IMG/VR virus record: IMGVR_UViG_3300029374_000315
Span: 17,327 to 81,326 of that record
Strand: one strand, 5' to 3'
DNA length: 64,000 nucleotides
Source: a virus
Shown here: positions 17,039 to 58,373 of the stretch, piece after piece
Numbering within the stretch: position 1 is the first letter of the stretch
Layout: every line of letters starts with the position of its first letter
The notes under the pieces: model-generated
Told to the model about the DNA's origin: nothing
The model's database searches: none
Seen by the model: only the letters and a program-made list of their open reading frames with translations
Translations under genes and position numbers: made by a program

Positions 17039-17374
17039 ATGATTTATACTGTAACAATGATTGACTCGTTTAAGGATGAGCAGAATGCGAAATTTAGCTC
17101 GCCGGTATCAAATACCAAAGGTATCTATTGGATGCCAGATGATAGTTGGATTGCTGGGTACTTCACGGATTTGAAAGAAGCTATCCAGTCTGTGATTGAT
17201 AATGTGGCTGATGTCTTTGAACACTGCTACAACTATGCAGTTATTGAAGGGTACGAAGAAGGATTCTATCCTGTGGCCGAGCTGACGAAGTGGTTTAAGT
17301 ATGATGCCAAGAGCGACAAGGCATTTGAGATTGAACCGCCGTTGCATAATAATGTGCGTGGATATGCGTTTTAA
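17039..17374 (+). CDS. hypothetical protein
   Basis: Internal ATG of ORF 16913, right after upstream stop. Confidence 0.45.
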   Translation: MIYTVTMIDSFKDEQNAKFSSPVSNTKGIYWMPDDSWIAGYFTDLKEAIQSVIDNVADVFEHCYNYAVIEGYEEGFYPVAELTKWFKYDAKSDKAFEIEPPLHNNVRGYAF

Positions 17375-23000: not shown

Positions 23001-23085
23001 GGGGATATGGTGAAATTGGCAGCCACGCTTGATTCAAACTCAAGTGTCGAAAGACGTATCGGTTCAAATCCGATTATCCCTACCA
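23001..23085 (+). tRNA. tRNA-Leu (anticodon CAA)
   Basis: Cloverleaf drawn by hand: acceptor GGGGATA/TATCCCT, anticodon stem CTTGA/TCAAG with loop TTCAAAC, long variable arm, T-loop TTCAAAT, CCA encoded. Confidence 0.8.
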
Positions 23086-23282
23086 TGAAGATCAGTTGTT
23101 CTAGCTAGATCGGGGATTGGCCGTTCATTGGCAAACGACAAGCATCACACCGGTAAATGATGCCGAGCCCAATAGGAAGGGGAATAAGGTGCAAGCCGAG
23201 TAGCTGTCGGACGAATACCCTTCAGGTAGCCAGTAAACCGGAATGTAAAACAAATGTTGGCTGTTTCTGATCTTCTATATAA

Positions 23283-23365
23283 GCTACCGTGGTGGAATGG
23301 CAGACACCGGAGACTTAAAATCTCCTGTCGGAAACGACGTGCCCGTTCAAGTCGGGTCGGTAGCA
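23283..23365 (+). tRNA. tRNA-Leu (anticodon TAA)
   Basis: Acceptor GCTACCG/CGGTAGC, anticodon stem GGAGA/TCTCC with loop CTTAAAA, long variable arm, T-loop TTCAAGT. Confidence 0.8.
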
Positions 23366-23372
23366 TTGATAT

Positions 23373-23448
23373 CCGGGTGTAGCTCAGTTGGAAGAGCGCG
23401 TGCTTTGGGAGCATGAGGCCGCAGGATCGTGACCTGTCACTCGGACCA
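23373..23448 (+). tRNA. tRNA-Pro (anticodon TGG), atypical T-loop
   Basis: Acceptor CCGGGTG/CACTCGG, D-arm GCTCAGTTGGAAGAGC, anticodon loop TTTGGGA, CCA encoded; T-loop reads ATCGTGA (non-canonical). Confidence 0.55.
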
Positions 23449-23536
23449 GCCCGAAAGGGCATGTAGAATTTTTCATTCACATTATTCCCAGCTCTCTGGA
23501 AACGGAGCAGTGTGACGTAGTAAGCTGGGTATATGA

Positions 23537-23607
23537 TGCGCCATCGCCAAGCGGTAAGGCAGAGGACTTTGACTCCTCCATCACAGGTTCAACCCCTGTT
23601 GGCGCAA
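23537..23607 (+). tRNA. tRNA-Gln (anticodon TTG)
   Basis: Acceptor TGCGCCA/TGGCGCA (U1:A72, as in bacterial tRNA-Gln), anticodon loop CTTTGAC, T-arm ACAGG-TTCAACC-CCTGT. Confidence 0.75.
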
Positions 23608-23612
23608 TTTAT

Positions 23613-23694
23613 GCGGATATGGTGGAATGGCAGACACGCCAGACTTAGGATCTGGTGCTTCGGCGTGTGGGTTCGATGCCCACTATCCGCACCA
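23613..23694 (+). tRNA. tRNA-Leu (anticodon TAG)
   Basis: Acceptor GCGGATA/TATCCGC, anticodon stem CCAGA/TCTGG with loop CTTAGGA, long variable arm, T-loop TTCGATG, CCA encoded. Confidence 0.8.
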
Positions 23695-23801
23695 CGATCA
23701 TAGAATGGTTGCGTACCGTTTTGTTGATCTCCTTTGACTGCCACTATTATTCCCAGCTCGCCAGTGATGGTGCAGTAGTGCTTTGTAAGCTGGGTGATTA
23801 T

Positions 23802-23876
23802 GCAGCGGTCGTACAATGGTTAGTATATCAGCCTTCCAAGCTGAGGATGAGGTTTCGACTACCTTTCGCTGCTCCA
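23802..23876 (+). tRNA. tRNA-Gly (anticodon TCC)
   Basis: Acceptor GCAGCGG/TCGCTGC, anticodon stem TCAGC/GCTGA with loop CTTCCAA, T-arm GAGGT-TTCGACT-ACCTT, CCA encoded. Confidence 0.7.
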
Positions 23877-24063
23877 ATCTCGTATGGGTAGGATTTTTAG
23901 CGGTCAAATCCGGCTGCGCCTGTGCGAGATACCACCCCGAAAGGGGCGAGATATAGGAAATGTGCATCACTGTTATTCCTTCCTCGTCTATATGATATAG
24001 ATGCAATAGTGTTTATAAGGAAGGTTCCCAGTTGAATAGTTGCAGCTGTTTGACTGGTAATAT

Positions 24064-24140
24064 GGGATAGTAGCTCAGTTGGTCAGAGCTGGCGGCTCAT
24101 AACCGCTTGGTCGCGAGTTCAAATCTTGCCTGTCCCACCA
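24064..24140 (+). tRNA. tRNA-Met/Ile2 (anticodon CAT), elongator-type
   Basis: Acceptor GGGATAG/CTGTCCC, D-arm GCTCAGTTGGTCAGAGC, anticodon loop CTCATAA, T-loop TTCAAAT, CCA encoded. Confidence 0.8.
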
Positions 24141-48666: not shown

Positions 48667-50190
48667 ATGAATATGATGTTTATTGCAGTTCCTGTCGTTG
48701 TTATCCTTTTGGTTGCCTTTGCATTTACTTGTTATAAGAAGGCTCCTCCGACTCAGGCAATCGTTGTGACCGGCTTTGGACTGTCTAAGCCGAAGGTTAT
48801 CTGTGGTCGTGGAGTGTTCGTCCTGCCTGTTATTCAGCGAGCTGATCGTCTGAATATGCGACTGCTCAAGATTGATGTCAAGACTCCTGAGACCGGTGTT
48901 AAGACTAAAGAGGGCGTTTCTTTGTGGTTGGACTCTGTTGTTACTGTTCAGGTTTACTCTGAAAACTCTACTGTAACTGATGAAGAAATCAAGAGTGCGG
49001 GCTGTGCAGATGCTAAAACCTATATCAGTGCCCGTCAGCAGGCTGCTATTTCTAACTTCCTTGGCATGAGTGAAGATGGTATCAACGAGAAGATTAACGA
49101 TGTCCTTCAGGGCAATCTGCGTGAGATTGTTTCCGAAATGACTGTCAACGACATTCTGACTAACCGTAAGCAGATGGCTATCTCTGTTGTTGAGAATGCT
49201 CGTCCTGATCTTGCAAAGATGGGTCTGGAGGTTGTTACCTTTAATGTTCAGGACATCAAGGATGCTATTGACGCTCAGGGTCATAATCACGGTGTCATCG
49301 AGGCAATTGGTGTTCAGCAGGAAGAACTGGTGAAGAAACAGGCTGAGATTGCCAAGGCAGAGGCAGCTCGTGATATTGCTCGCGCAAAGGCTGATACTGC
49401 CCGTGAAGCAAACGAGAAGGAAATTGAGTCCAAGACTGCTATCGCCCAGCGCAATAATGAGTATCTGCTGGCTCAGGCCGCTCTGAAGACTAAGGCTGAT
49501 AGGGCAAATGCTGATGCCGAGGCTGCTGGTCAGATTCAGATGAACCTTCGTGACAAGGAAATTAAGGAAGCTGAAGCCGATGCAGCTATTGCACAGCAGA
49601 AAAAGATGGTTGAATTGGCTGCTAAGGAAGCAGAAGTTCGCCAGCAGAAGCTGGATGCGGAAGTTCGTAAGCAGGCAGATGCCGATTTGTATAAGCGTCA
49701 GAAGGAAGCTGAAGCAAAGAAGTACGAAGCAGAGCGTTCTGCAGAATCTGCAAAGTTCGCCAAGGAACAGGAAGCAGAAGGCATCCGTATGGTTGGCATG
49801 GCAGAAGCTGAGGCCATCAAGCAGAAGGGTCTTGCTGAAGCAGAAGCTATGTTGAAGAAGGCTGAAGCTTACAAGCAGTACAATGGTGCGGCTATGGGTG
49901 AAATGATCATCAAGATTCTGCCTAACATCGCAGCTGAGGTTGCAAAGCCGCTGGCCTCCATCGATAAGGTTTCTATTATCGGCAGTAATGCAAATGGCGT
50001 TTCTGAGATTTCCGGTAATGTTCCGGCAGTAATGGCTCAGACCTTTGAGGCCGTTCGTGAAGCAACTGGCATCGATATGAAGGAAATTGTCCGTGCTAAC
50101 AGCTATGATGCAAAGGTTACTAAGAATGTGAATCTTGTGAGCGATTCTACGATTGTTTCTGAAAAGAACGATGCGCAGGATGCTGAGTAA
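48667..50190 (+). CDS. flotillin-like SPFH/band-7 domain protein
   Basis: N-terminal TM; SPFH core IVVTGFG...VLPVIQRADRLNMRLLKIDV; C-terminal EA-rich flotillin-type coiled coil. Confidence 0.8.
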   Translation: MNMMFIAVPVVVILLVAFAFTCYKKAPPTQAIVVTGFGLSKPKVICGRGVFVLPVIQRADRLNMRLLKIDVKTPETGVKTKEGVSLWLDSVVTVQVYSENSTVTDEEIKSAGCADAKTYISARQQAAISNFLGMSEDGINEKINDVLQGNLREIVSEMTVNDILTNRKQMAISVVENARPDLAKMGLEVVTFNVQDIKDAIDAQGHNHGVIEAIGVQQEELVKKQAEIAKAEAARDIARAKADTAREANEKEIESKTAIAQRNNEYLLAQAALKTKADRANADAEAAGQIQMNLRDKEIKEAEADAAIAQQKKMVELAAKEAEVRQQKLDAEVRKQADADLYKRQKEAEAKKYEAERSAESAKFAKEQEAEGIRMVGMAEAEAIKQKGLAEAEAMLKKAEAYKQYNGAAMGEMIIKILPNIAAEVAKPLASIDKVSIIGSNANGVSEISGNVPAVMAQTFEAVREATGIDMKEIVRANSYDAKVTKNVNLVSDSTIVSEKNDAQDAE

Positions 50191-50201
50191 GAGGTGATTA
50201 C

Positions 50202-53200
50202 ATGGAATATGTGATTAAACGCGATGGAACGAAAGTTCCTTTTGATAAAAGTAAGATTGTAAATGCAATCGAGAAGGCGATGAATGATTCCTCAGATCCT
50301 GTTGACCACAAGCTGAGTGATAGTATTGCATCGGAAATCGCAGCAATCGATTCTACTATGGATGTAGAAGCAATTCAGAATGCAGTTGAAAATCGCCTTA
50401 TGCAGAGTGGTTACTATGAGACAACTCGTTCTTATATGAACTATCGGTATCTGCATGGTATTGCTCGCAGCAACTACAAGGAGCTGATGGATGCGGTTGA
50501 AGAAAAACTTCTTGGCAAGAAGATTGATAATCAGAATGCCAATGTCGATGAAGCATCTTTTGGCGGTCGTATTGGCGAGATGAGCCGGGTGGTTTCCAAG
50601 CGATATGCTCTTGACTACTGTATGTCTAAGATGGCTCGTGAGAATCACGAGAACAATGAAATTTATATCCACGATCTCGATAGCTACGCAGTTGGTATGC
50701 ATAACTGCTACGATTCCGCTACAAAGTTTATTACTCAAACTGGTGTTAAGCGTTTTGGCGACTGTACCGATGGTCAAATTGTGTATGTTCTGGATAAGAA
50801 TGGCGAGTGGAGAAAAGCAACCGTTCATAAATATGGAAAGCAGAAAATGTATGAGTTGACTTTCAAAAGTAGCCTTACTACTAAAAAAGTCACATGTACT
50901 AGAAATCATCGTTGGGTTCTTGAAAATGGAGAGGTCACTGACAATATCAATATTGGAGATTCTTTGATTCTGACCACAAAAGTGCAAAATAAATATTCAT
51001 CCAATGATAGCTTGTGGTGTTTTGGTTTTGTTCTTGGAGATGGCGTTGACTTTTATATGAAGTCAAAGGATAAGAGCAGAATCACAAACAGCAGTATGCA
51101 GGTTCGTCTTTGTGGGCATAAAATTGAATATATCAATAAATTTTTGGATAATGGCTGGTCAAAAAGACAGACACACAAAAACGGAGATATCACATTGATT
51201 TCTCGTGGGAATGGTGCTTTTAAACAGGCGTTCTTGGATAATGAATTTTGGAAGATCATGTCATATGATGACCTGTGCAATATTTTTGAAGGTTACGTTC
51301 ATGCTGATGGACATTTTAGAGAAAATGGTTCAGTAATGCTGTCAACGTCTGATCCTCGAATGAAGCACTTTATTGAAGATGTGTCATCCGTTTGCGGCTA
51401 TTACATTTGGTCTGAAAATGAGAAATTTAATGACACAAATTTTAAGGATGGCAGAACCTTATACGAGTTTTATTTGGTAAAAGAGCAGTCTACGAAATGG
51501 ACTTTGCAAAGTATTGCGGCCAGCAGAGACGGCGATAATGGGTATAAAACTGCATGGTGTGTCGAGGAGCCCGTAACAAAAACGTTTATTCTTGATGGTT
51601 GTATGACTACAGGTAACTGTTTAAGTATCCCGTTTGATGACCTGCTTGCGAATGGTTTCAACACTCGCCAGACCGATGTTCGTCCTGCACAGTCCATCAG
51701 TACGGCATTCCAGCTTGTCGCAGTCATCTTCCAGATTCAAAGTCTTCAGCAGTTCGGCGGCGTGAGCGCAACACACCTAGACTGGACTATGGTTCCTTAT
51801 GTACGGAAGAGCTTTTCGAAGCATTTTAAAGATGGGATTAAATACATTAAGCCTGAAGATGACCCCAGCAGAGTACCCAAAGAATTATCTTTTAACGACC
51901 TAGAGGCTAATGATCCAAGGAATGCAAAAGTATATCAGTACGCAATGGATATGACCAAACGTGAGTTGAACCAAGCCGTTGAAGGCATGTACCATAATCT
52001 AAATACACTCCAATCACGTAGCGGAAATCAGCTTCCGTTCACGTCTATCAACTATGGCACATGTACGTTGCCTGAAGGCCGAATGGTTATCGAAGCATTG
52101 CTAAATGCTTCCATTAAGGGTATCGGCAAATTACATAGAACTAGCATTTTCCCTTGTGGTATTTTCCAGATGGCTAAGGGAATCAATCGTGCTCCCGGAG
52201 ACCCTAATTACGATATGTATCAGCTGGCACTGCGTTCCACTGCACAGCGTCTTTATCCTAATTATGCCAATGTCGATTGGAGCGGCAATGAAGGATACGA
52301 TAAAAATAATGTAAAAACGTATTTTTCGACGATGGGCTGTAGAACTGCAAATGGTTGGGATGTCAACGGCTTTGAGCAGTTGAAGGATGGCCGAGGGAAT
52401 ATCTGTCCTGTTACGATTATTCTTCCTACTCTTGCAATGGAAGCGAAGGAATATACCATTAAAAACGCTACTGGAGAAGACCTTGAAGGACAGACTGTAG
52501 CCAAGTTTATGTCCATTCTTGACCAGAAGTTGCATGAAGCAAAAGATATGCTGATTGAACGCTTCGAGTGGATTTGCTCTCAGTCTCCTGAGTCTGCAAA
52601 ATTCATGTGGGAGAATGGAACAATGGCCGGATATGACGGAAAAGATATTCGTTCCGCTCTGAAACATGGCACGTTGGCTGTTGGTTTGCTCGGCATGGCT
52701 GAAACTCTTCAGATTTTGATTGGAGAAGATCAAACTTGTGATAATGGCCTTGAGCTTGCAAAGAAAATTTGTCAGCTCTACAAAGATCGCTGCGACGAAT
52801 TCAAGCACAAGTATTCTCTAAATTTTGGCGTGTACTTTACGCCCGCAGAAAACCTTTGTTTTACTGCCATGCAGAGATTTAAGGCAAAATATGGTGATAT
52901 TAAAAACGTTTCAGACAAAGAGTTTTTCACTAACAGTGTCCATGTTCCGGTATGGCGAGAAGTGACACCGTTTGAAAAGATCGATATTGAGTCTCAGCTT
53001 GACGGATATTCAAGCGCAGGCTGCATCGCGTATGTAGAGCTCGACTCGACTGTAAAGAATAATCTCGGTGCGCTGGAAACAATTGTGAACTATGCAATGG
53101 ATCATGACATTCCGTATTTTGCAGTGAATGTTCCAAATGATACCTGTATGGAATGCGGTTATTGTGATGAGATTGGTGATACTTGCCCTGAGTGTGGAAG

Positions 53201-53324
53201 TCATAATATTCGGCGTCTTCGTCGTGTGACGGGCTATCTCACGGGCGATTACACTACAGCTTTCAATCTTGGTAAGCAGCAAGAAGTTGAGCTTCGTGTT
53301 AAGCACAATCGAGTGATTCATTAA
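50202..53324 (+). CDS. nrdD: anaerobic ribonucleoside-triphosphate reductase (class III, NrdD) containing an intein
   Basis: N-terminal ATP-cone; C-terminal Zn ribbon CMECGYC..CPECG and glycyl-radical motif RRVTGYLTGD; 285-aa insertion with Hint and LAGLIDADG blocks. Confidence 0.85.
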   Translation: MEYVIKRDGTKVPFDKSKIVNAIEKAMNDSSDPVDHKLSDSIASEIAAIDSTMDVEAIQNAVENRLMQSGYYETTRSYMNYRYLHGIARSNYKELMDAVEEKLLGKKIDNQNANVDEASFGGRIGEMSRVVSKRYALDYCMSKMARENHENNEIYIHDLDSYAVGMHNCYDSATKFITQTGVKRFGDCTDGQIVYVLDKNGEWRKATVHKYGKQKMYELTFKSSLTTKKVTCTRNHRWVLENGEVTDNINIGDSLILTTKVQNKYSSNDSLWCFGFVLGDGVDFYMKSKDKSRITNSSMQVRLCGHKIEYINKFLDNGWSKRQTHKNGDITLISRGNGAFKQAFLDNEFWKIMSYDDLCNIFEGYVHADGHFRENGSVMLSTSDPRMKHFIEDVSSVCGYYIWSENEKFNDTNFKDGRTLYEFYLVKEQSTKWTLQSIAASRDGDNGYKTAWCVEEPVTKTFILDGCMTTGNCLSIPFDDLLANGFNTRQTDVRPAQSISTAFQLVAVIFQIQSLQQFGGVSATHLDWTMVPYVRKSFSKHFKDGIKYIKPEDDPSRVPKELSFNDLEANDPRNAKVYQYAMDMTKRELNQAVEGMYHNLNTLQSRSGNQLPFTSINYGTCTLPEGRMVIEALLNASIKGIGKLHRTSIFPCGIFQMAKGINRAPGDPNYDMYQLALRSTAQRLYPNYANVDWSGNEGYDKNNVKTYFSTMGCRTANGWDVNGFEQLKDGRGNICPVTIILPTLAMEAKEYTIKNATGEDLEGQTVAKFMSILDQKLHEAKDMLIERFEWICSQSPESAKFMWENGTMAGYDGKDIRSALKHGTLAVGLLGMAETLQILIGEDQTCDNGLELAKKICQLYKDRCDEFKHKYSLNFGVYFTPAENLCFTAMQRFKAKYGDIKNVSDKEFFTNSVHVPVWREVTPFEKIDIESQLDGYSSAGCIAYVELDSTVKNNLGALETIVNYAMDHDIPYFAVNVPNDTCMECGYCDEIGDTCPECGSHNIRRLRRVTGYLTGDYTTAFNLGKQQEVELRVKHNRVIH
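50763..51617 (+). other. intein with LAGLIDADG homing-endonuclease domain inside nrdD
   Basis: Starts CTDGQIVYVLDKNG (block A), then TCTRNHRW (block B), LAGLIDADG-like LWCFGFVLGDGVDFY and IFEGYVHADGHF, ends ...FILDGCMTTGN followed by Cys+1. Confidence 0.75.
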
Positions 53325-53442: not shown

Positions 53443-54294
53443 ATGAAGAAATTTATGGCAATTTTTGTTGCATTCCTCGTTGCGGTTGGCGCAGTGCTTT
53501 GTACCGAGCGAGTACATACTGGTTATGTTGGTGTTGTTTATTCCGCAAAGGGTGTCGAGCAGCAAACTATTTCTCAGGGCTGGCATTTTATGAGCCCTCT
53601 GAAGCATGTGTCTGAGTTCCCGATTACTCAGCAGCGAGTAGTCTTTTCTAATGCTCCGTCCGATTATGGCGCAAAGGAACACGCAGATTGGCACATTGAT
53701 GCTCCTGCTAATGGCGGTACGATTGCAATCAACCTGACTGTCAATTATAACTTCCTGCCGGAGCATGTTGTTGAACTGTACACCAAGTTTGGTGGTATGG
53801 ACGGTGAGAGCCTGATGGAGAGCAAGATCCAGAACGATATTATTGCTTACGTCAAGGAAGTTACTCCTCAGTTCAGTGTCATGCAGATTTATTCTGATGA
53901 TCGCGCAGGTGTTAATACTGCAATCACCAACTATTTGAATGAGAGGCTGACCGCAGAGTATGGAATCAATGTCTCTTCCGCACTGATTGTTGACGCACAG
54001 CCTGATGATACCCTGATGCAGAAGATTCGTGCCAAGGAGCAGGCAAAGCAGGATGCAGAGATTGCAGAGCTGAATAAGCAGACCGCTCTGGCTCAGGCAG
54101 AGACTGATAAAGTTAAGGCACAGACGGAAGCTGACGTTAAGATGATCGAAGCACAGGCCGAGGCTGATGCAAACAAGGTACTCTCGGAGTCTATTACTCC
54201 TGAACTGATTCAGATGAAGGAAGCAGAAGCTCGTCTGAAGCATGGTTGGGTCACCGTTCAGGGTGCAGATACAGTCGTCACCAAGGGTGAGTAA
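53443..54294 (+). CDS. SPFH/band-7 (prohibitin/HflK-like) membrane protein
   Basis: N-terminal TM; SPFH core GYVGVVYSAKG...GWHFMSPL; C-terminal coiled coil. Confidence 0.7.
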   Translation: MKKFMAIFVAFLVAVGAVLCTERVHTGYVGVVYSAKGVEQQTISQGWHFMSPLKHVSEFPITQQRVVFSNAPSDYGAKEHADWHIDAPANGGTIAINLTVNYNFLPEHVVELYTKFGGMDGESLMESKIQNDIIAYVKEVTPQFSVMQIYSDDRAGVNTAITNYLNERLTAEYGINVSSALIVDAQPDDTLMQKIRAKEQAKQDAEIAELNKQTALAQAETDKVKAQTEADVKMIEAQAEADANKVLSESITPELIQMKEAEARLKHGWVTVQGADTVVTKGE

Positions 54295-57153: not shown

Positions 57154-57822
57154 ATGGGATATTTTGAAGATTATAGCTGGTGTGAACCAGAGGCAGAGTC
57201 TCAGGCTGACCAAATTGTATCTAGTGCAATTGAGCAACTAAAAAATCTTGTTTCTGATAGCGCTAAGACTACCATGAAAGAATATCAAGACTTGGAAACG
57301 AGAAAAATTAAACTTCAGCGTGAAGTCAATGAGCTTGAATACAAAAAACATAAGTCCGAAGAAGAACTTAAAGACCAGATTGCTTTATATAAGCGAATGG
57401 ACGAACATGATTTGCCAAAAGGCTTTGTAAATAAAATCGTTGGTGCGTTGATTGGTGATTTCAAAATTGGAGACGATGCTTGGACAATAGAAGCTAAGTA
57501 TAAGAGTTACGAGTGTCCATTATGTCATGGGAAAGGAGTTGTCTCTACAAAAATCAATGGAAGCATAGACCGTGATATTAAATGTCCTGAATGTAACGGA
57601 TATAAAAGAGTCTCAAATCTTTCCTACTATGCACAAAAAAGAAAGATTGCAAGATTTGATATAAGGCTTAATTTTAATAATCTTAACCAAATGTGGGTAG
57701 CCGACGAAGATCACATTATTTTTTGCGACGGAGATTATAACAGGTATGCAAATGGCCTTTATAAAACTGAGCAGGAAGCAATCGATGCAGCTGCTAAGAA
57801 GAACGCAGAGGTGAGTAAGTGA
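57154..57822 (+). CDS. hypothetical protein with CxxC..CxxC zinc ribbon and coiled coil
   Basis: CPLCHG...CPECNG; 222 aa. Confidence 0.55.
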   Translation: MGYFEDYSWCEPEAESQADQIVSSAIEQLKNLVSDSAKTTMKEYQDLETRKIKLQREVNELEYKKHKSEEELKDQIALYKRMDEHDLPKGFVNKIVGALIGDFKIGDDAWTIEAKYKSYECPLCHGKGVVSTKINGSIDRDIKCPECNGYKRVSNLSYYAQKRKIARFDIRLNFNNLNQMWVADEDHIIFCDGDYNRYANGLYKTEQEAIDAAAKKNAEVSK

Positions 57823-58373
57823 ATTACGCTAAAATTATTCCATGTGATATAGCAAATGGCGAAGGGGTGCGCGTCACATTGTTCGTACAGGGTTGTGACC
57901 ATCACTGCCACGGCTGTCAGAATCCTGCTACATGGGACCCGAATGGCGGTCAGCCATTCACGGATGAAACGCTTGATAAAATTGTAGATTTACTTCGACC
58001 TGATTATATTCAGGGGCTTACGCTTACTGGTGGAGATCCACTATATCCAGAGAACAGGGAAATGATTTGCAAAATTCTAATAAGAGTCAGACACGAGTTT
58101 GAAGGAAGCAAAGACATTTGGATGTGGACAGGATATACATGGGAAGAATTGATTCAACAGGCGGCAGAAGAATTGAAATATCAAACTATTCCGACAACGG
58201 TAACAATTATTCGAAACATAAACGTGCTAGTCGATGGTCCATATATCGAATCTAAACGAGATATCTCTTTGCCGTACATGGGGAGTTCCAATCAACGTGT
58301 AATCGGCTGTAATAAGAGTTTTGCTTTACGAAGACCAGTCCTTTGGTGGACTCCAGAAGAGAAAGGAAAATAA
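57819..58373 (+). CDS. nrdG: anaerobic ribonucleoside-triphosphate reductase activating protein (radical SAM)
   Basis: FVQGCDHHCHGCQNP matches NrdG CxxxCxxC cluster; GLTLTGGDP. Confidence 0.8.
   Translation: MNYAKIIPCDIANGEGVRVTLFVQGCDHHCHGCQNPATWDPNGGQPFTDETLDKIVDLLRPDYIQGLTLTGGDPLYPENREMICKILIRVRHEFEGSKDIWMWTGYTWEELIQQAAEELKYQTIPTTVTIIRNINVLVDGPYIESKRDISLPYMGSSNQRVIGCNKSFALRRPVLWWTPEEKGK

Follow-up and report, generated by a model that had tools for sequence, protein, structure and literature searches.

A putatively mobile LAGLIDADG intein, with corrected boundaries, in the anaerobic ribonucleotide reductase gene nrdD of a metagenomic virus

A stretch of 64,000 nucleotides (nt) from the IMG/VR virus record IMGVR_UViG_3300029374_000315 (positions 17,327 to 81,326 of that record), hereafter called the window, was analyzed around its nrdD gene. 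A metagenomic scaffold of 243 kb contains a stretch with 100% identity to the window. Its open reading frame (ORF) of 1040 amino acids (aa) is predicted to encode the catalytic subunit, NrdD, of a class III ribonucleotide reductase (RNR), interrupted by an intein of 304 aa. The precursor matched the Pfam models ATP-cone (4.4e-23), NRDD (1.9e-142) and Gly_radical (1.2e-07) and the NCBIfam model TIGR02487 for NrdD (460 bits). Both NrdD models matched in two stretches, and the second Pfam NRDD stretch started from residue 469, which corresponds to profile position 54. The NRDD barrel, the C-terminal glycyl-radical domain, the cysteine of the reductive half-reaction and an nrdG partner gene, as expected for a class III NrdD, were all found. 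The nrdG-like gene was assigned by its PHROG match (Table 1), and the gene table of locus L022 (100% identical) lists Pfam Fer4_12 and Radical_SAM for it.

The insertion is an intein lying between N168 and C473 of the ORF, with the junction ...AVGMHN↓CLSIPFDD... (↓ marks a junction or a break throughout). When 50706-51617 was removed, the remaining gene of 2211 nt was equal in length to eight alleles without the intein, which come from different samples, and differed from them by 1-3 aa and no indel. At least 120 proteins with a length of exactly 736 aa were retrieved at 99-100% identity when the spliced product (736 aa) was the query, and several of them differed from it by one residue. The N168↓C473 product gave a single Pfam NRDD stretch of 79.1 bits and aligned over its full length to the Prevotella copri NrdD structure 8p23 (2.2e-117) with no gap at the junction, and the alignment to structure 9d3x was likewise gap-free there. 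The position of the insert was identical in six relatives (...N↓C(F/Y/L)xxxT(K/R)F(I/V)T...TGN↓C...), and all seven phage matches as well as 14 of 16 metagenomic proteins aligned over intein residues 1-304, the other two proteins being fragments. The guanine-cytosine content of the intein was 0.375, against 0.417 and 0.435 in the flanking extein parts.

A preliminary description, made from the letters of the window, had already claimed an in-frame LAGLIDADG-type intein in a class III RNR catalytic subunit, and both points are borne out. It had, however, placed the intein at 50763-51617, i.e., from Cys188 to Asn472 of the ORF, and had proposed joining the extein halves as ...RFGD↓CLSIPFDD.... 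These coordinates are in frame and give the peptide quoted with them, a beta-strand-like stretch does follow Cys188, and the right end, ...TTGN followed by Cys+1 after position 51617, was correctly identified. On the other hand, the true start is at 50706 (Cys169 of the ORF), 57 nt or 19 aa upstream, and the size of the insert is 304 aa rather than about 285 aa. The sequence around the earlier start reads ...HDLDSYAVGMHN-CYDSATKFITQTGVKRFGD-CTDGQ..., and the 19 residues CYDSATKFITQTGVKRFGD, which a start at Cys188 would assign to the N-extein, have no counterpart in any intein-free NrdD. With the RFGD↓CLS junction the NRDD match was broken into two stretches (67.7 bits), while the N168↓C473 junction was seamless. 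All inteins of the relatives align from Cys169, and Cys188 equals intein residue 20, a variable position with F, C, L or N among the relatives. In the same way, the peptide CTDGQIVYVLDKNG is not block A, as had been suggested; the true block A, CYDSATKFITQTG, begins with Cys169. The Cys188 start thus has practically no chance of being right, and the natural intein-free alleles rule it out.

Table 1. Features of the nrdD locus and its surroundings, in window coordinates unless a locus is named.
Feature	Position	Strand	Details and support
nrdD ORF, 1040-aa precursor, intein-interrupted	50202..53324, stop codon included	+	ORF list; ATP-cone, NRDD barrel, glycyl-radical domain
N-extein, aa 1-168, end ...HDLDSYAVGMHN	50202..50705	+	gap-free 8p23 and 9d3x alignment; T4 NrdD alignment; intein-free alleles match in length and sequence
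Intein, 304 aa, Cys1...Asn304	50706..51617	+	Hint splicing domain with inserted LAGLIDADG endonuclease domain
Block A, CYDSATKFITQTG, Cys1 nucleophile	50706..50744	+	C1, T6, G13 invariant in alignments A1, A2, A3
Block B, TKKVTCTRNHRWVL, Thr65 (B:7), His68 (B:10), Trp70 (B:12)	50880..50921	+	T65, H68, W70 invariant
LAGLIDADG homing-endonuclease domain, about intein aa 96-228	50991..51389	+	
LAGLIDADG motif 1, SLWCFGFVLGDGVDF, Asp112	51009-51053	+	
LAGLIDADG motif 2, YDDLCNIFEGYVHADGHF, Asp201	51264-51317	+	
Block F, TAWCVEEPVTKTFILD	51549..51596	+	Cys285 F:4 (51558-51560), Lys292 F:13 (51579-51581), Phe294 F:15
Block G, GCMTTGN	51597..51617	+	Thr302 (G:5), Gly303 (G:6, penultimate), Asn304 (G:7)
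+1 Cys, first C-extein residue	51618..51620	+	equivalent to T4 NrdD Cys79, E. coli Cys175, T. maritima Cys125
C-extein, aa 473-1040	51618..53324, stop codon included	+	Pfam; 8p23 and 9d3x; intein-free alleles
Haplotype block, upstream arm, 34 window-private synonymous substitutions	50267..50705	+	compared with 8 intein-free alleles
Haplotype block, downstream arm, 5 window-private synonymous substitutions (+2, +5, +11, +41, +56)	51618..51674	+	
Intein-free nrdD site sequence			...GGTATGCACAAT↓TGCTTGAGTATTCCG...
Window flanks joined without intein			...CATAAC↓TGTTTAAGTATCCCG...
nrdG-like activating enzyme (radical S-adenosylmethionine), functional NrdD partner	57819..58373	+	PHROG 626 'anaerobic ribonucleotide reductase small subunit', 1.3e-56
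SPFH-family gene, 507-aa Band_7/flotillin-like protein, upstream of nrdD	48667-50190		
SPFH-family gene, 283-aa Band_7 protein, downstream of nrdD	53443-54294		
Array of six transfer RNA genes	23001-24137	+	Rfam RF00005, 53-66 bits
Extra nrdD interruptions in relatives	L007 7585-8687 and 9309-9488; L009 7552-8712		

In an alignment with T4 NrdD (1h78), the N-extein ended at Asn78 and the C-extein started at Cys79. The latter residue is the cysteine conserved for the reductive half-reaction of NrdD and has its equivalents in E. coli Cys175 and T. maritima Cys125 (PMC4493059). By this alignment, the intein is inserted immediately before the predicted catalytic cysteine of that half-reaction. The catalytic cysteine of the host protein would thereby serve the intein as its +1 nucleophile, and the unspliced precursor could not have an intact active site.

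The structure of the intein was predicted with AlphaFold2 from a 15-sequence alignment. The model had a mean predicted local distance difference test score of 92.8 and a predicted template modeling score of 0.88, with no low-confidence segment. When compared with the PDB by Foldseek, it matched PI-PfuI (5e-12), PI-SceI (2.6e-10), PI-TkoII, many I-DmoI entries (about 3e-5) and the Ssp DnaB and DnaE mini-inteins. The Hint fold of inteins was thus recognized, as was a monomeric LAGLIDADG endonuclease with two motifs in the alpha-beta-beta-alpha-beta-beta-alpha pair fold. The LAGLIDADG helices comprise residues 101-112 and 187-201 of the model and end in Asp112 and Asp201, respectively, two acidic residues that are invariant in the relatives. 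The motifs GFVLGDGVDF (51024-51053) and VHADGHF (51297-51317) and the block B sequence CTRNHRW (50895-50915), all pointed out in the preliminary description, are present. A search of PDB sequences with the whole-family profile A1 retrieved no intein but just NrdD and ATP-cone proteins, because the extein columns dominated the profile; therefore a mini-intein profile, A2, was used instead.

As no curated Hint or intein profile matched the insert, it could be regarded as an accessory domain of another kind that is retained in mature NrdD. This is vanishingly improbable in view of the high-confidence match to the Hint and LAGLIDADG folds, the conserved junction residues Cys1, Asn and Cys+1, and the location of the insert, which splits the active site directly before the catalytic Cys. 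In addition, the insert is present or absent at 99-100% extein identity, and unrelated RNR backbones carry the element at a site of the same kind. A chance occurrence of intein motifs was also rejected.

Relatives of the intein were gathered from INPHARED phages, a collection of 5.8 billion proteins, IMG/VR (212 confirmed loci, 80 retained) and GTDB genomes (14 loci), and residues were counted in 94 distinct inteins of 274-323 aa. The patterns used to fish for relatives contained block B and block F motifs, and the regular expression that located the ends for the 94-intein table demanded 'GN'; the unbiased support for TGN↓C therefore comes from the ends in the tblastn set and from phmmer, run without any pattern against 1.84 billion cluster representatives (50% identity). 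Every complete relative had an insert, as delimited by tblastn, that started with Cys and ended with TGN followed by Cys. Among the distinct inteins, Cys at A:1, Cys at F:4 and Phe at F:15 were present in 94/94, T-G-N-C at G:5-G:7 and +1 also in 94/94, and Thr at B:7, His at B:10 and Trp at B:12 in 93/93 (positions B:7-B:12 are numbered after PMC5222942 and PMC3196547). At position F:13, 74 of the 94 had His, 9 had Lys and 11 had another residue. In the numbering of the window, C1, T65, H68, W70, C285, T302, G303, N304 and C+1 were invariant among the 94, down to about 25-30% identity.

The phmmer search gave 873 matches at E <= 1e-3, of which 360 were at <= 1e-10. Among the best 150 matches, the approximately 120 intact members always had Cys1, Cys at F:4 and Cys+1. 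Gly was found at G:6 in 116 of 126 domains, and about half of the non-Gly calls came from truncated or stand-alone sequences, so that about 95% of the intact members have Gly; the exceptions among them were two with Ser and one each with His, Met and Arg. One member of this set had Asp in place of the terminal Asn. The nine residues listed above were nearly invariant in this set as well. Judging from these alignments, a penultimate Gly is the norm of the intein family. The Gly in place of His that had been noted at the outset is thus real, but it is not the odd variant it was taken for. The intein family was present in just 7 of about 2,500 phage records with a NrdD match across the region, yet it is abundant in metagenomes. 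The intein nearest to the window copy was 77% identical to it.

Among cultured phages, members of the family are located in nrdD of Vibrio phage V6Aob (L002), Klebsiella phage FBKp34 (L003), Morganella phage MP1 (L004) and Vibrio phage PVo5 (L005). The genes of the first three are annotated only as an over-long 'anaerobic ribonucleotide reductase' and that of PVo5 as a 'hypothetical protein', with no intein feature. Several divergent NrdD types also carry the same family. Furthermore, it was found at a ...N↓C... site in monomeric B12-dependent class II RNRs (L094, L095, L100, L101, L119, L120 and L078), the match lying at 1501-~2430 in each of these loci but L078. The class II assignment is based on Pfam RNR_Alpha, RNR-II_ins_dom and Ribonuc_red_lgC in the spliced flanks of L094, L095 and L120 and on flank motifs in the others. 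From these alignments, RNRs of two classes thus appear to harbor one intein lineage at comparable Asn↓Cys sites. With this intein removed, the L078 gene had further intein-like insertions, CLAPETM...VAHN↓C and NPC↓FTGDTM.... Four proteins of about 305-313 aa (P0155, P0179, P0184 and P0266) are stand-alone homologues of the whole intein (E 1e-22 to 3e-50) without exteins. They have Tyr, Gly, Ser or Ala at position 1 and no TGN↓C, and in two of them F:4 is Thr or Asn instead of Cys. They look like free-standing endonuclease genes of intein origin, analogous to yeast HO.

The window copy has the residues typical of intein junctions (C1, T65-x-x-H68, N304 and C+1), with Gly303 at the place of the common, although not obligatory, penultimate His. 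It shares Cys1, Thr B:7/His B:10 and the +1 nucleophile, all invariant, with class 1 inteins. The residues that usually assist in class 1, Asp F:4, His F:13 and His G:6, are replaced by Cys285, Lys292 and Gly303, respectively. W70 (B:12), C285 (F:4) and T302 (G:5) make up the Trp-Cys-Thr triplet that defines class 3 inteins (PMC2807308; PMC3196547), in which B:10, B:12 and F:4 correspond to His65, Trp67 and Cys118-124 of the characterized members (PMC5222942). Class 3 inteins have no nucleophile at position 1, while the window copy and all intact relatives have Cys1. Cys285 is not assigned to F:4 by spacing alone, because profile A2 (HMMER) aligned it with three references: D107C of the engineered gp41-1 variant 6riz and the F:4 Asp of both the DnaE intein (...VYDIGVESDHNF...) and the Ssp DnaB intein (...VFDLTVPGPHNF...). 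The Trp of the family aligned with F65W (W65) of 6riz. In the search of the PDB with A2, 6riz had an E-value of 0.0012 and wild-type gp41-1 one of 0.29, a difference which is due to the two engineered residues, W and C.

After translation, the intein would excise itself and join ...GMHN to CLSIPFDD..., and the resulting 736-aa NrdD would be the same as that of the common intein-free allele. The chemistry is most likely that of the canonical class 1 route, starting from Cys1. An N-S acyl shift at Cys1, set up by Thr65 and His68, would be followed by trans-thioesterification to Cys+1, cyclization of Asn304 without a penultimate His and, finally, an S-N shift. Together with Trp70 and Thr302, Cys285 would stand at the coordinating position that is held by Asp in ordinary inteins, and it may also be a nucleophile. 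We favor the class 1 route because Cys1 and Thr B:7 are absolutely conserved and because grafting the W and C onto a class 1 intein is not in itself enough for class 3 chemistry. Thr B:7 'spring-loads' the position-1 nucleophile in class 1 inteins and is generally lacking in class 3 inteins (PMC6195587). When W and C were grafted onto the class 1 gp41-1 intein, no class 3 splicing was created (PMC7664689), indicating that the triplet alone does not set the mechanism.

In a class 3 or dual route, Cys285 would attack the N-terminal scissile bond, the N-extein would pass from a block-F branched thioester to Cys+1, and Cys1 would be dispensable or auxiliary. This is possible, if clearly the less likely course. 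The triplet is complete and invariant, independent HMMER alignments to the 6riz, DnaE and Ssp DnaB inteins place C285 at F:4, and the family profile has its best PDB match in the engineered gp41-1 variant with W and C. In an InBase survey the triplet was found in 37 inteins, of which 34 had no N-terminal nucleophile and three had Ser1 or Cys1 (PMC2807308), so its combination with a position-1 nucleophile is rare but not unheard of; another set of 1701 class 3 members was defined by an absent N-terminal Cys (PMC7891396). In contrast, both Cys1 and Thr B:7 are invariant in the family, the graft onto gp41-1 failed to create class 3 splicing, and no class 3 intein was retrieved in the sequence search with the family profile. 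A further reading, which we regard as rather doubtful, is that of a large phage-borne RNR intein family in which the class 1 set, the class 3 triplet and a near-fixed Gly at G:6 are fused and Cys285 is a second functional nucleophile. It is a possibility that the Cys1/Cys285/Cys+1 cluster makes splicing redox-gated; if so, the oxygen-sensitive NrdD would mature only under reducing, anoxic conditions. The constant family signature C1 / TxxHxW / WC / TGN / C+1 is a lead for mechanistic work and not a demonstrated new mechanism.

Within the same phage lineage, intein-containing and intein-free alleles encode the same mature enzyme. The exact 1040-aa protein was found on 8 contigs, and the intein-free allele P0026 alone in 852 blocks of the collection. 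The eight intein-free alleles differ from each other at 0-5 of 504 N-extein positions. The window nrdD without its intein differed from all eight at 41 positions, 41/41 of them synonymous. Thirty-nine of these window-private substitutions were within -439..+56 nt of the site, a region of 495 of the 2211 nt (binomial P = 2e-23). Five fall in -4..+11 of the junction, where the intein allele reads CAT AAC ↓ TGT TTA AGT ATC CCG and the empty site CAC AAT ↓ TGC TTG AGT ATT CCG. Beyond +56, the window was 98.3-98.5% identical to the intein-free genomes for 2.9 kb.

We read this block of 39 substitutions as an intein-linked haplotype of the kind that homing leaves. During co-infection the endonuclease would cut intein-free nrdD alleles, and repair would copy the intein together with flanking donor sequence, carried along asymmetrically, giving the window allele with its intein and synonymous block. 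In the simplest reading, the intein arrived by homing, or by site-initiated recombination, from a donor with the same NrdD protein but diverged DNA.

The intein could also be a decaying copy that fails to splice and inactivates nrdD, the loss being tolerated through the supply of deoxynucleoside triphosphates (dNTPs) by the host RNR. The absence of His at both G:6 and F:13 would fit this, as would the rarity of the intein-containing allele, with 8 contigs against hundreds for the intein-free alleles. However, decay is improbable. The ORF is intact, all nucleophiles and the acidic residues of the endonuclease are kept, and so is nrdG. No intein-linked substitution in the exteins changes an amino acid, a sign that selection on NrdD continues. 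Lys is found at F:13 in 9 of the 94 distinct members, from different hosts, and is therefore a natural variant and not a private lesion. Efficient splicing in the absence of these histidines also has precedents. In the Bethlehem RDF intein the penultimate Gly is natural, and its G316H change led to precursor accumulation (PMC5050341), and the class 3 AceL NrdHF intein, with no His at F:13 or G:6, splices within minutes (PMC7891396). By analogy with these two inteins, splicing in the window may be independent of the usual histidines.

Therefore, with a probability of roughly 0.85, we consider that the window carries a splicing-competent, recently mobile intein with the boundaries 50706-51617. 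Several points weigh against this conclusion. Splicing and DNA cleavage by members of the family are predictions. The window copy has Gly at G:6 and Lys at F:13 and is thus without both His residues that assist Asn cyclization, and a phage that obtains dNTPs from its host may not need its own NrdD, so that a poorly splicing copy could persist. The left flank of nrdD is a mosaic with 82-96% identity to the genomes with the intein-free allele, and the first 82 nt of the gene are shared with genomes that have a quite different nrdD of 733 aa; ordinary recombination or module exchange may thus explain a part, the far end, of the upstream arm. No donor came to light that has the identical intein in a different backbone, and the nearest intein besides it is the 77% identical one. 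Finally, at E <= 10 the insert matched no Hint or intein model in Pfam, where LAGLIDADG_3 at 0.074 was the sole match; in NCBIfam a spurious GroES match was the only one, and PHROGs gave no match. The preliminary description had named the lack of a Hint fold on profile search as grounds for rejecting the intein. Formally, this lack was observed with Pfam and NCBIfam, yet the fold-level searches were unambiguous, and a test based on profiles is therefore too strict.

The variation around the intein was not restricted to its presence or absence. Otherwise syntenic genomes (L017, L019 and L021, compared with window 50202-50283) have one of two very different nrdD genes, encoding 736 aa, as in the window, or 733 aa. 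Over stretches of 60 nt, the nucleotide identity of the two types is about 35-65%. They part about 82 nt from the start of the gene, following the shared MEYVIKRDGTKVPFDK(S/N)KIVNAIEKAM, indicating that the 5' end of nrdD is a recombination joint for whole-gene swapping. In the closest intein-bearing relatives, nrdD has an extra break exactly after ...QSLQQFG, and an HNH_3/NUMOD4 protein is encoded in the approximately 1.1 kb before nrdD coding resumes with GVSATHLDW. L007 has a second break at ...STMG↓CRTANGW, before a conserved Cys which we take to be the thiyl-radical Cys of NrdD. The window has neither of these interruptions, and 51758/51759 (QQFG↓GVSATH) as well as TMG↓CRTANGW are uninterrupted. 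An Rfam search of the 1.1-kb interruptions for a group I intron gave no match at the gathering threshold or at E <= 1; they are a putative intron or split gene.

The NrdD gene was found on contigs with lengths between about 40 kb and 667 kb. The replication and nucleotide-metabolism region of the window (38847-62131), when compared with L012-L015, was strongly mosaic, with blocks of 66% to 99.9% identity. It encodes a DnaE-type DNA polymerase III alpha subunit, a RecD-like helicase, DNA ligase, ThyX, a DUF3310 protein, NrdD, NrdG and a dCTP deaminase/dUTPase. A GIY-YIG/NUMOD3 endonuclease gene is inserted just upstream of nrdG in L015, and in L014 there is a transposase of the IS110 family. 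The place of the 507-aa Band_7 gene upstream of nrdD is taken by a LemA-domain gene and a 258-aa ORF in most related genomes (the other neighbors are given in Table 1). A megablast search of nrdD against 50,697 phage records gave no match. The closest NrdD of a cultured phage was that of Thomasclavelia phage TR-TP1 (H8, PQ571309.1 65132-65506), which is intein-free and 79% identical over the 126-aa junction region. This likeness is a weak hint that the window phage may infect a gut host of the Erysipelotrichales type.

Inteins in phage RNRs are a known type of element, as the preliminary description had said, and each individual feature described here has a precedent. The family as such, however, appears to be uncurated: it is invisible to Pfam, NCBIfam and PHROGs and unannotated in the deposited genomes that carry it. 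The corrected boundaries and the family alignment would let curators remove the intein, which is relevant where RNR is used as a viral marker gene. With two kinds of alleles in one lineage and a sharply bounded synonymous block at the insertion, the haplotype preserves a natural trace of intein-linked gene conversion in populations of gut phages that is cleaner than usual. The origin of class 3 inteins has been sought in a class 1 phage intein (cited in PMC3196547) or in convergence of the fold (PMC7664689). A widespread natural family with both Cys1 and the Trp-Cys-Thr triplet makes this question directly testable.

Among RNR genes, nrdD is the one most often split in phages, and putative nrdD inteins have been described in the Clostridium phages c-st and D-1873 (PMC3653736). 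The c-st intein probably belongs to a different family or site, because c-st was not among the seven matching phage records. Fragmented nrdD is common in gut jumbo phages (PMC12880540), and introns and endonuclease insertions in nrdD are known in other phages and in Jug phages; the window gene has the intein but neither of the two further interruptions of its relatives. The structurally closest inteins, PI-PfuI (the RNR intein endonuclease of Pyrococcus furiosus, PDB 1dq3) and PI-SceI (yeast VMA1), have 12-17% sequence identity to the window intein. The latter is about 125-150 residues shorter, with no obvious extra DNA-recognition region, it differs from them by Cys at F:4 and Gly at G:6, and its host is a class III and not a class II RNR. 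The only solved inteins reached by the family sequence profile were gp41-1 (6qaz), a cyanophage-like class 1 mini-intein, and its W/C variant 6riz. Cys1, Thr G:5 and a phage-like origin are common to gp41-1 and the window intein, but gp41-1 has Phe at B:12, Asp at F:4 and no endonuclease domain, and its engineered W/C form does not splice productively (PMC7664689).

The Bethlehem RDF (gp51) intein resembles that of the window: it belongs to class 1, comes from a phage, includes a LAGLIDADG domain and naturally has Gly at the penultimate position, where phage inteins often have Gly, Lys or Ser instead of His (PMC5050341). By its description it is set apart by a different host protein and by the Trp-Cys-Thr triplet, which is not reported for it. 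Class 3 inteins (Bethlehem DnaB, Msm and Mch DnaB-1, Bvi IcmO and AceL NrdHF) share Trp B:12, Cys F:4 and Thr G:5 with the window intein, and a phage origin has been proposed for them. The numbering is nearly equal, with His68/Trp70 in the window, His65/Trp67 in the DnaB inteins and Ser65/His68 in AceL NrdHF. AceL NrdHF also resembles the window intein in having no His at G:6 and F:13 and an RNR-related host protein, and Bvi IcmO resembles it in having Cys+1. At the sequence level, no affinity of the window family to class 3 inteins was detected with profiles A1 and A2 against the PDB. The hosts of class 3 inteins are P-loop helicases or terminases, whereas those of the window family are RNRs. 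Class 3 inteins have, by definition, no N-terminal nucleophile and generally no Thr at B:7, while the window family keeps both without exception.

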